64,000 nt of DNA from a virus. Taxonomy: Duplodnaviria > Heunggongvirae > Uroviricota > Caudoviricetes > Ackermannviridae. Every line of letters begins with the position of its first letter. Within the stretch, counting starts at the first letter, position 1. The notes beneath the pieces were generated by a model. It did no database searches and was not told the origin of the DNA. It worked only from the letters and a program-made list of their open reading frames with translations. Shown piece after piece: positions 23,999-32,708 of this stretch. The position numbers and the translations under genes were made by a program. The stretch is from IMG/VR virus record IMGVR_UViG_2974596396_000001, positions 24,254-88,253 of that record. One strand, given 5' to 3'.

Positions 23999-24556
23999 AT
24001 GGCAATCGAAATTATCGCTCAATCAAAATCAGGCAAAACAGTTCTGTTCGGAACCGAAGAAGGTCGTGCAATCACCACCCTGGGTACGGTTGACGGCAGC
24101 AATCCAGTAAAAGGCGGTCGCTTTCTGGTTGAATACGGTTCTCGTGTTGTAATGATAAGCAAAATCGATGGTCGTGAAATCACTGCTCCTCGCCAAGAGT
24201 TCTTTGATTCACGTTCCGCTGCCATGCAGTTCTTTTTCTTCCAGAAACGTCATGAACTGTTCGTTGAAGCGAAAGACGCAGGTCTGGACGACGCGACGGC
24301 TGAACTGATTGCCGAAGGTAAAATGACTCTTGAGGCTGCTCTCGGAGACATGGATTGCGAAGCCGAAGCACATTATATTGAATATTCCGCATATCAGAAC
24401 GAATGTGAAGATGATCCGGAAGATGACGGCTTCGACCCTGACCTCCACGGCGGTGAAGACGATAACACCCCTTCCCTAGAAGTTCTGATGGCTGGCGGTC
24501 AGGCCGCTTGGGAATGGCAGAACGAGAAGAACGCCTGGCTGGATTCCCGTATCTAA
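23999..24556 (+). CDS. acidic hypothetical protein (start revised to MAIEII)
   Basis: AAGGA SD; Asp/Glu-rich C-terminus. Confidence 0.7.
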   Translation: MAIEIIAQSKSGKTVLFGTEEGRAITTLGTVDGSNPVKGGRFLVEYGSRVVMISKIDGREITAPRQEFFDSRSAAMQFFFFQKRHELFVEAKDAGLDDATAELIAEGKMTLEAALGDMDCEAEAHYIEYSAYQNECEDDPEDDGFDPDLHGGEDDNTPSLEVLMAGGQAAWEWQNEKNAWLDSRI

Positions 24557-31810: not shown

Positions 31811-31855
31811 TGCCCTTCACTTGCCAGAGATCAGGGCAATTGGTAAGACTTCGCT

Positions 31856-31944
31856 CACATCTTAGAGGACACTGCACGGGACTCGAACCCGCCACGAACA
31901 TTTGGCGCCAAATGCTTCCACCTGTCAATGTCCTCTAAGATGTG
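31856..31944 (-). ncRNA. tRNA mimic with ~19-bp acceptor helix and palindromic anticodon arm
   Basis: CACATCTTAGAGGACATTG/CAGTGTCCTCTAAGATGTG; GCGGG-TTCGAGT-CCCGT; CATTTGGCGCCAAATG. Confidence 0.65.
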
Positions 31945-32068
31945 GAGCCGTTTTAGGGAGTCGAACCCAAATGCTTGGCCAGCGCTGACCTTACATCCCA
32001 TCTGACTTAGGCAACCCACCTCTGCTTACTCAGGAGCTTATCCCCTTTGGACAGTCAGATATAACGGC
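31943..32068 (-). ncRNA. expanded tRNA-like RNA (~126 nt) with CCA end
   Basis: GCCGTT/AACGGC-TCCA; GGG-TTCGACT-CCC; ATCTGAC/GTCAGAT; GGTCAGCGCTGGCC. Confidence 0.6.
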
Positions 32069-32124
32069 ATCGTCGACGGGAGATTATTAATCACACCCTC
32101 CCGTCTATTTTAGTGCGCCGAATT

Positions 32125-32338
32125 TGGTGATGAGGAATCGGAAGACCTCACTGGTGTATGGCTGTTAAGCTACTGCCAGGAACGTGTTATCGTTTGCATT
32201 TATCTTTGTGGTCAGTTTCTAAAAACCCGCAAAGTCGCATCCAACGAGAACGAAAACCTGTTTGAGTCCTAAACCTACCTGTCTTGGTCTCACATCGCTA
32301 TGAGTGGCCAGGACTCAAACAGCTTGCCGTTCAGTGAG
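32125..32338 (-). ncRNA. tmRNA-like RNA: tag reading frame ANDNTFLAVA* (32165-32197), CCA end, no canonical tRNA-like domain
   Basis: GATAAAT-GCA resume context; stop codon in an H5-like hairpin loop; own promoter; 13-bp 5' stem. Confidence 0.6.
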
Positions 32339-32341
32339 TTA

Positions 32342-32367
32342 ACTATACTTTGTAACCCGTTATTGAT
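32342..32367 (-). promoter_or_regulatory. phage promoter ATCAAT-N14-TATAGT driving the tmRNA-like RNA
   Basis: exact 14-nt spacer, as in the other copies. Confidence 0.6.
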
Positions 32368-32386
32368 AAAACCTTTTATTTTTTGT

Positions 32387-32454
32387 TGGCGAGGGTGTGG
32401 AATCGAACCACACTTCTGAGCGCTACCCCGTGTCACCAATGCACCACCTCACCA
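32387..32454 (-). ncRNA. compact tRNA-like RNA with stunted anticodon arm (68 nt)
   Basis: GGTGAGG/CCTCGCC, GTG-CATTGGTGA-CAC, GTGTGG-TTCGATT-CCACAC. Confidence 0.65.
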
Positions 32455-32616
32455 TCGATTTGCCGGAACTTACGCATCCGGCCTCGTCCTGTCGGTGTTC
32501 TTCTGAATCCGGGAAGATCAGCAGGAACTATGAATCAAGTTAATTCAACCAACAGGAATCCTCGTGTTGCCCTTTGACGCAACATTATGAACCCTCTATG
32601 AAGACTCATAATGTTG

Positions 32617-32708
32617 TCGGCGTGATGGAGATTAGCGCCCCCGACCCCCCCTTATATGTTGGTGTCGACTTGCCAACAGGGTGCTCTCTGATTCTGAGCT
32701 AATCACGC
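32617..32708 (-). ncRNA. tRNA-like RNA with a hairpin inserted in the anticodon loop and non-canonical T loop
   Basis: GCGTGAT/ATCACGC, TA-GCTC...GAGC, CCCT/AGGG enclosing GTTGG-CAAGTCGACA-CCAAC. Confidence 0.6.

Follow-up and report, generated by a model that had tools for sequence, protein, structure and literature searches.

A conserved RNA gene of enterobacterial phages, very probably a headless tmRNA derivative, with an arm complementary to host tmRNA

Introduction

What could a phage RNA do with an ssrA-type tag frame and no tRNA-like head to go with it? The question is raised by a locus in the tRNA cluster of a phage of the family Ackermannviridae, where a first, sequence-only reading had proposed a minimal tmRNA-like RNA with a tag comparable to the E. 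coli ssrA tag. The E. coli tag carries the ClpX determinant in its C-terminal LAA and binds SspB through its AANDENY part. Here, we describe the boundaries, reading frame, fold and relatives of this RNA, and a 5′ arm that is complementary to the tmRNA of the host. The heart of the initial proposal, a tag frame without a tRNA-like domain, withstood the analysis, whereas its CCA end, its lack of pseudoknots and its pk1-like segment did not. Throughout, the window is the whole stretch of DNA that was analysed (64,000 nucleotides, positions 24,254 to 88,253 of IMG/VR record IMGVR_UViG_2974596396_000001), and coordinates refer to it unless another locus is named.

Results

Setting and boundaries of the RNA gene

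The window region is 99.6% identical to Salmonella phage SeSz-1 and near other Kuttervirus genomes (Ackermannviridae), and the source assembly is a complete virus record of 160.4 kb with terminal repeats. The RNA gene lies on the minus strand of an ORF-poor stretch that also holds four ordinary tRNAs and several tRNA-like cassettes. Its features are listed in Table 1.

Table 1. Features of the phage RNA gene in window coordinates
Feature	Coordinates	Strand	Description	Basis
Promoter-like site	32342–32369	−	TTATCA 32369–32364, 16-nt spacer, TATAGT 32347–32342	Consensus scan
5′ hairpin	32258–32322	−	13-bp stem; specific to Ackermannviridae copies	
5′ arm, putatively antisense to host tmRNA nt 68–106	32220–32257	−		Local antisense alignment
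Single-stranded linker leading to resume context GATAAAT	32198–32219	−		Sequence; cmscan alignment to tmRNA consensus
Tag frame ANDNTFLAVA + TAA	32165–32197	−	10 codons, without start codon	
Helix-5-like hairpin	32151–32179	−	Stop codon in loop	Covariation
Pseudoknot A	32118–32150	−	Stem TGAGG 32150–32146 / CCTCA 32135–32131; loop CCGA 32141–32138 / TCGG 32121–32118	
Pseudoknot B	32072–32117	−	CGCAC 32117–32113 / GTGTG 32096–32092, the latter inside the last hairpin loop	

As had been proposed, the RNA appears to have a promoter of its own. The promoter-like site upstream is conserved in other Ackermannviridae, where Taipeivirus and Agtrevirus relatives keep it as TTGTCA...TATAGT, and transcription would be expected to start near 32335. 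Four RNA runs, all of them made up of contigs, were examined; a transcriptomic run among them contains a 235-nt contig over 32198–32433 at a depth of 3.7, an assembled contig that carries neither strand nor end information nor proof of transcription.

The pk1-like paired segment of the sequence-only reading turns out to be the 13-bp 5′ hairpin, which occurs only in Ackermannviridae copies. Its stem shows compensatory changes in IME250, Menlow, ChubbyThor, KpS110 and MK-13, and the hairpin was not found in Felixounavirus, P1 or lambdoid copies. The suggested 3′ end, a CCA closing an RNA of ~210 nt, also had to be given up. The copies in HK633, wV8, P1, Menlow and ChubbyThor do not conserve this CCA (32127–32125), which falls between the strands of pseudoknot A and, judged by this comparison, is a chance feature. 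The conserved module extends instead to ~32072, through two pseudoknots, and there the Ackermannviridae homology stops.

Elsewhere in the cluster, a conserved structured stretch with a hairpin (AACATTATGA...TCATAATGTT) lies upstream of a tRNA-like cassette (32540–32660, minus strand) and is common to Kuttervirus, Agtrevirus and Taipeivirus.

A tag frame without a start codon is conserved at the peptide level

The start-less, tmRNA-type tag is present where it had been read, directly after GATAAAT (GCA AAC GAT AAC ACG TTC CTG GCA GTA GCT TAA, 32197–32165 on the minus strand). An in-frame TAG lies upstream at 32221–32219, and between this TAG and the GCA of the tag frame there is no ATG, GTG, TTG or Shine-Dalgarno sequence. 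The resume context has U at −5 and A at −4, matching U85 and A86 of E. coli tmRNA. The linker upstream of the resume codon is CA-rich and, together with the resume context, nearly invariant in Ackermannviridae. cmscan places the resume and tag stretch, below threshold, on the corresponding part of the permuted and beta-proteobacterial tmRNA models, and Rfam scores stay below gathering (22.3 vs 47 bits for RF04321, 14.6 vs 84 for RF01850 and 9–10 vs 47 for RF00023).

Conservation of the amino acids, whose absence would have counted against the sequence-only reading, is borne out by 24 distinct DNA variants of the ten codons, all of which follow the pattern A-N-[DE]-[DENT]-x-[YFMV]-[LM]-[AVM]-[VA]-A-stop. 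The family tags include ANDNTFLAVA, ANDNVFLAVA, ANDEQFLAVA, ANDDQFLAVA, ANEEMYLAVA, ANDTQYLAVA, ANDDLMMVAA, ANDDLMLAAA, ANDNAYLAVA and ANDDVVLMAA. Synonymous codons are used for the last alanine (GCC, GCT or GCG), the stop is TAA, TAG or TGA, and pN/pS is lowest in the tag frame (0.64, vs 1.47 and 0.87 in the other two frames). The IMG/VR family set was gathered by a pattern that fixes codons 1–3 and a TGG, and the free evidence on the tag is that of BLAST-derived relatives and codons 4–10 only. On this comparison of variants, the tag is constrained at the level of the peptide. Peptide-level conservation of the frame implies in turn that the frame must be translated.

Translation could in principle belong to an ordinary small protein gene with a non-canonical or overlapping start, and an ATG that overlaps the resume codon (AAATGCAA) does open a 9-codon frame in the window. 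However, this ATG frame is 5 codons long in P1, is conserved among subfamilies in neither sequence nor length, and is the frame with a pN/pS of 1.47; the tag frame itself has no start signal after the upstream TAG. We give the small-protein reading almost no weight.

The module recurs in unrelated enterobacterial phages

A 261-nt blastn query matched 766 phage records, which belong to unrelated groups. A module of ~190 nt is carried by Ackermannviridae, Felixounavirus, P1, lambdoid phages and siphophages of Klebsiella and Cronobacter; the Ackermannviridae copies are full length, whereas the unrelated phages keep a core of ~130–190 nt. The HK633-type variant is present in 135 of 5426 complete E. 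coli genomes, and a pattern scan of IMG/VR added more than 100 further loci. Recurrence in 766 phage records, combined with a tag kept at the peptide level, is far beyond chance.

The genomic contexts are varied. In the Felixounavirus wV8, the copy lies inside a tRNA array behind a TTGACA-17-TATAGT promoter. The copy in the lambdoid phage HK633 occupies a late-gene leader, between the Q-dependent promoter and the holin gene. In P1 it forms part of the ban-operon leader, right after the 'dicF-like region' and ahead of tRNA-Asn and tRNA-Thr. The 'dicF-like region' was considered as the same element and rejected, as that feature ends where the module begins.

Lambdoid and P1 copies are bracketed by units that start with CACAACAGGTAAGAGCA and end with GTGCTCTTTCC (L003 2650–2760; L002 2678–2700 and 3117–3130). 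These units form an extended closing stem, which often encloses a T arm, and may serve as tRNA-like processing punctuation. CACAACA, noted for these bracketing units, is the GcvB R1 target consensus (PMC4104026).

Helix 5 and two pseudoknots are supported by covariation

The fold was evaluated on an alignment of 36 diverse copies (A3) at 21 pairs. In the proposed structure 88% of cells pair, compared with 36–43% when the partner strand is slid, and 13 of the 21 pairs change on both sides; none of 500 shuffles reached the observed values, and the covariation counts are inflated by related sequences.

The placement of the stop codon in the loop of a helix-5-like hairpin, part of the initial proposal, is supported by this covariation. 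Its outer pairs CTGG/CCAG become CTGA/TCAG in KpS110 and MK-13, one compensatory pair type. Helices 1 and 2 of the hairpin are paired in 86–97%, and the inner 3-bp helix is weaker at 67%.

The RNA had been thought to lack pk2–4, but two pseudoknots with covariation support follow the tag. The hairpin of pseudoknot A, written GTGAGG/CCTCAT in the family alignment, pairs through its loop with a downstream TCGG. All four loop-to-downstream pairs have two-sided changes, in 7–17 sequences each, as do three of the five stem pairs. Stem 1 of pseudoknot B is paired in 92% and is rich in compensation, with CGTAC/GTATG in wV8, CGCAT/ATGTG in L028, CGCAG/CTGTG in P1 and CAGACT/AGTCTG in L016. Its last hairpin, formed by GACGGGAG (32105–32098) and CTCCCGTC (32082–32075), has a stem whose sequence differs by subfamily while complementarity is kept in every one, and the rest of its loop, ATTAATAAT, is conserved. 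A competing pseudoknot, in which ACACC downstream of the stop would pair with GGTGT of the last loop, was rejected: no compensating change is seen in KpS110 or MK-13, and GTGTG pairs with CGCAC.

These data bear on the view that the RNA is some other regulatory small RNA acting on host or phage mRNAs, or a decaying phage tmRNA relic without function. The CA-rich linker and the sub-threshold Rfam scores would be in keeping with either, and the lambdoid copies lie in the region of clustered prophage small RNAs that follows the late promoter (PMC4104026). Identity with the prophage anti-sRNAs AgvB or AsxR was considered and rejected, those being RNAs of 51–60 nt with their own terminators. A relic, for its part, would not keep covarying pseudoknots, a promoter and a peptide pattern across hundreds of phages from unrelated families. 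Taken together, we regard a regulatory RNA of another kind or a relic as distinctly unlikely.

No tRNA-like head is encoded with the tag

The absence of a tRNA-like domain holds across a large family. ARAGORN finds neither a tmRNA nor an alanine tRNA-like domain in the window, and no tmRNA in 107 of 110 family loci. Over the whole 160.4-kb phage genome, no tmRNA passes the threshold and no SmpB was found, and a custom scan of the RNA cluster in the window found no element that combines G3:U70, A73 and CCA. PK1 and helix 2 are missing as well, the region upstream of the tag consisting of the antisense arm and the linker, with no conserved internal pairing.

The head might nevertheless be supplied by a neighbour, as the sequence-only reading had also considered, which would make the RNA the coding piece of a true split tmRNA with a phage tRNA-like RNA as its head. 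One candidate is the upstream tRNA-like cassette at 32384–32453 (minus strand), which has both a D arm and a T arm, a linker of 16 nt and no anticodon arm. It is annotated as tRNA-Ala in SeKF_19, and 212 nt separate its T arm from the resume codon downstream, close to the 221–227 nt found in true permuted phage tmRNAs. However, its acceptor strands, GGTGAGG/CCTCGCC, pair with each other and close the cassette on itself; the third pair is U3-G70 rather than G3-U70, and the cassette ends in ACA. It is also dispensable: Menlow and MK-13 have no such cassette, and other cassettes take its place in KpS110 and IME250. No other RNA of the cluster has the alanine identity set, and in HK633 and many other copies there is no T arm at all within −700 to +900 nt.

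A second candidate head, a 'T arm + CGGCTCCA' at +230, is an inserted cassette beside the closing stem of the following module. A giant one-piece tmRNA, running from GGGGTCG at ~32648 to this T arm and CGGCTCCA at ~31968–31945, was rejected since the T-arm insertion is absent from Taipeivirus. CGGCTCCA was likewise rejected as a tmRNA 3′ end, as it is part of the 17-bp stem that closes the next module. A tRNA-like RNA lies at 31855–31950 (minus strand), with acceptor GACATTG/CAGTGTC, a T arm and a short hairpin replacing the anticodon arm; the ~17-bp stem that encloses it shows compensatory changes in Menlow and KpS110.

A further candidate belongs to the Felixounavirus lineage. Most copies there are followed, ~70 nt downstream, by an unannotated tRNA-like RNA (in wV8, L004 2665–2745, plus strand), which has a 7-bp acceptor CGGGGCG/CGCCTCG, G3:U70, A73, an encoded CCA and a T arm, and lacks a D arm. 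ARAGORN makes no call on this RNA, and by its identity elements it could be an alanine-accepting head in that lineage. For the family as a whole, completion by a neighbouring tRNA-like RNA is highly improbable.

The nearest relatives in the resume and tag region are two-piece tmRNAs

ARAGORN called complete permuted (two-piece) tmRNA genes on three viral IMG/VR contigs (L044 11249–11673, L076 5694–6103 and L078 392–782), with the tags ANDNVYMVRAAA, ANEKFALVA and ANDNAPMDFALAA, respectively. Each includes a proper acceptor piece and a GGGGCTG 5′ strand, and its resume motif is that of the headless family. The covariance model of the headless family (R1) scores L044 and L076 at 24–29 bits, L078 at 13 bits and E. 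coli tmRNA at 14 bits. Because of these scores and the common resume motif, the headless family most likely descends from a phage two-piece tmRNA. No GGGGCTG-type strand was found within 400 nt upstream of the headless copies.

The 5′ arm is complementary to host tmRNA

Opposite the arm blocks GTTTTCG, GCGAC, TTTGCGG and TTTTTA lie the 3′ strand of PK1, the linker, the resume codon and codons 1–5 of the tag in host tmRNA. Compared with E. coli tmRNA (sequence taken from L124), GTTTTCGT is the reverse complement of ACGAAAAC in codons 3–5, GCGAC that of GUCGC in the −3 to +2 region, which includes the resume codon, and TTTGCGG that of CCGCAAA in the PK1 3′ strand; TTTTTA stands against UAAAAA. 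GTTTTCGT matches the host codons exactly, whereas the phage element's own codons vary, and GCGAC and TTTGCGG have no pairing partner within the phage element. The GCGG/CCGC part of the complementarity may be a legacy of the PK1 5′ strand.

The 5′ homology of the family starts exactly at (A)GTTTTCG, whether a promoter, a terminator, a tRNA-like module or the Ackermannviridae hairpin precedes it. There are two types of arm, whose complementarity to this one target rests on partly different blocks. In the Felixounavirus type, CTATTTT is retained opposite host AAAAUAG, a block left out by the other type. One P1-type copy with the tag ANDDLMMVAA (L024 2306–2507, plus strand) lacks the arm, an unrelated GC-rich sequence standing in its place.

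To score the arms, each was aligned to tmRNA 68–106 with a blastn-like score and compared with 2000 dinucleotide shuffles of itself. The observed score was reached by 31 of the 2000 shuffles for the window arm, by none for the ANDEQF-type arm, and by 9, 12 and 54 for the arms of wV8, P1 and HK633. Two weak subfamilies gave 82 (L012) and 177 (L016). By the same measure, two phage tmRNAs that bear a tRNA-like domain have no antisense arm (985/2000 and 649/2000). Random phage segments reached the observed score in 0 of 2000 cases for the window arm and in 0–3 of 2000 across the five stronger arms. Two other statistics had too high a shuffled background and were both replaced by the stricter score used here: for headless arms, RNAduplex energies gave z values of about +0.3 to −3.1, and a more lenient alignment score gave about −0.1 to 3.9.

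When 121 host loci of 8 kb were searched on either strand with seven arms, five of these had their best antisense site at ssrA nt 40–125 in 55–80% of the loci, and sites of equal score also occur elsewhere in 1.8 Mb of enterobacterial DNA. The isolated duplex of arm and tmRNA has a computed energy of −36.9 kcal/mol, and the duplex is present in the cofold dimer with a ddG of −16.6 kcal/mol, a calculation that ignores pseudoknots. The complementarity is AU-rich and broken by three gaps. All told, the alignments and shuffles lend real but moderate support to an arm that is antisense to host tmRNA.

Across 121 enterobacterial and Pasteurellaceae loci, the part of tmRNA that the arm would target hardly varies, and because of this near-invariance across Enterobacterales, covariation between phage and host lacks power. 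Among genomes from the family around Yersinia, model R1 matched 1 of 151, and among those of Pasteurellaceae it matched 0 of 151. The single match has the ordinary arm type in a host with an ordinary tmRNA, and hence has no power for covariation either.

Discussion

A possible route to retagging by host tmRNA

The conserved RNA gene described here is, with high confidence, a functional headless derivative of tmRNA. As for its function, our best explanation is that the phage RNA docks on the tmRNA–SmpB complex of the host, where it would either supply its own tag template or block that of the host. Docking with retagging is the mechanism that we put forward, tentatively, from these sequence comparisons. 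The conserved frame has neither a start codon nor a head of its own, and host tmRNA is the only partner to which the sequence points.

As a tmRNA descendant, the RNA has kept the message half, comprising the resume context, a 10-codon degradation-type tag, helix 5 and two pseudoknots, and has lost the tRNA-like domain, helix 2 and PK1, in whose place stands an arm complementary to the host sequence from the PK1 3′ strand to tag codon 5. In the proposed mechanism, the arm would anneal to host tmRNA in the infected cell, beginning on the exposed tag codons and proceeding into PK1, and would thereby mask the host resume codon. Annealing would also tether the phage message to the alanine-charged, SmpB-bound head of the host, much like the coding piece of a two-piece tmRNA, with the phage linker and resume codon, ~22 nt past the duplex, placed beside that head. 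Rescued ribosomes might then resume on the phage frame and add (A)ANDNTFLAVA in place of (A)ANDENYALAA. The AND motif at the N-terminus would be retained and the C-terminal LAA changed, and the fate of rescued proteins during infection would probably change as well. Given that LAA is the ClpX determinant, tags of the LAVA type may therefore lead to altered handling of rescued proteins. To our knowledge, there is no precedent for translation that resumes on a message given in trans to a one-piece tmRNA. The idea of a rescue RNA with a differently degradable tag, raised in the sequence-only reading, is in this sense the best one available, but only with host tmRNA as the head.

The main rival is an antisense blocker or sponge. 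By pairing with host tmRNA, or by titrating SmpB, S1 or RNase R, it would only stop or redirect trans-translation, and its own tag would never be translated. It relies on the same arm complementarity, and an inhibitory partial tmRNA has a precedent in a molecule similar to the head-only tmRNA of mycobacteriophage DS6A (PMC4131195; PMC11915505). A blocker has no need of a reading frame, yet the length of the frame, its peptide pattern, its synonymous alanine codons and its stop are all kept, as are the UA resume context and helix 5. The decoy or blocker role, itself among the early suggestions, is possible and leaves the frame unexplained; we consider it rather unlikely.

The proposed docking on host tmRNA can be extended to the whole family. 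Many unrelated enterobacterial phages would then carry a parasitic coding piece that forms a hybrid two-piece tmRNA with the host molecule and places a phage tag on every rescued protein. We hold this broader claim to be possible and somewhat doubtful.

Significance

The RNA is matched in hundreds of enterobacterial phage records, among them the model phage P1, relatives of Felix O1 and lambdoid prophages of E. coli. tmRNA finders need the tRNA-like head, and because of this requirement a message-only form is invisible to them. No description of a message-only form came up in full-text literature searches on phage RNAs that resemble tmRNA. The phage forms in the tmRNA database papers are head-bearing or, in DS6A, head-only (PMC4131195; PMC11915505), and a published Kuttervirus genome lists 0 tmRNAs (PMC10112204).

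If docking is true, it would be a new viral route to the control of host protein quality control, would mean that tmRNA is able to take a message in trans, and would provide a natural tool to change the tag of ribosome rescue. If the reading as a parasitic coding piece holds, this would be the first supply of a message in trans to tmRNA and the first viral rewriting of a degradation signal. Phage tRNA clusters are thought to counter tRNA-cutting defences, and docking would link these clusters to the handling of the stalled ribosomes that such defences create. Even if the RNA only blocks tmRNA, it would be a widespread, undescribed phage RNA aimed at a central RNA of the host.

Comparison with known systems

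The canonical enterobacterial tmRNA has three pseudoknots downstream of its tag. The phage RNA resembles such one-piece tmRNAs (RF00023) in its GCA resume codon with U at −5 and A at −4, its start-less tag of ~10 codons that opens with AND and closes on small hydrophobic residues, a stop codon within the helix 5 loop and the string of pseudoknots after the tag. It differs in having no acceptor stem, T arm, CCA, helix 2 or PK1, two pseudoknots instead of three, an arm antisense to tmRNA itself and sub-threshold Rfam scores, and its tags end in LAVA, MVAA or LMAA rather than ALAA.

The two-piece tmRNAs (RF01849, RF01850, RF04321 and those of phage contigs L044, L076 and L078) are the nearest sequence relatives of the resume and tag region. 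They have the TAAATGCAAACGA motif in common with the phage RNA, and both carry the message on an RNA apart from the CCA end, so that the message piece would need base pairing to a head. However, a true two-piece coding piece carries the 5′ acceptor strand GGGGCTG, with the acceptor piece encoded upstream, both of which are absent here. The partner of a two-piece tmRNA is its cognate piece, whereas the partner proposed here is the complete tmRNA of the host.

AgvB and AsxR (PMC4104026) are phage RNAs that pair with a host non-coding RNA and alter its function, as is proposed for the RNA described here, and lambdoid copies of the module occupy the same region downstream of the late promoter. Unlike the phage RNA, they are 51–60 nt long and Hfq-bound, have a terminator and no reading frame, and show no sequence relation to it.

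Finally, mycobacteriophage DS6A encodes a tmRNA that consists of the tRNA-like domain only, and a TLD-only molecule similar to it strongly inhibited tmRNA (PMC4131195; PMC11915505). Like the RNA described here, the DS6A tmRNA is a phage-borne partial tmRNA thought to interfere with host trans-translation. The two are nonetheless mirror images: DS6A has the tRNA-like head and no tag, and the phage RNA described here has only the message half.
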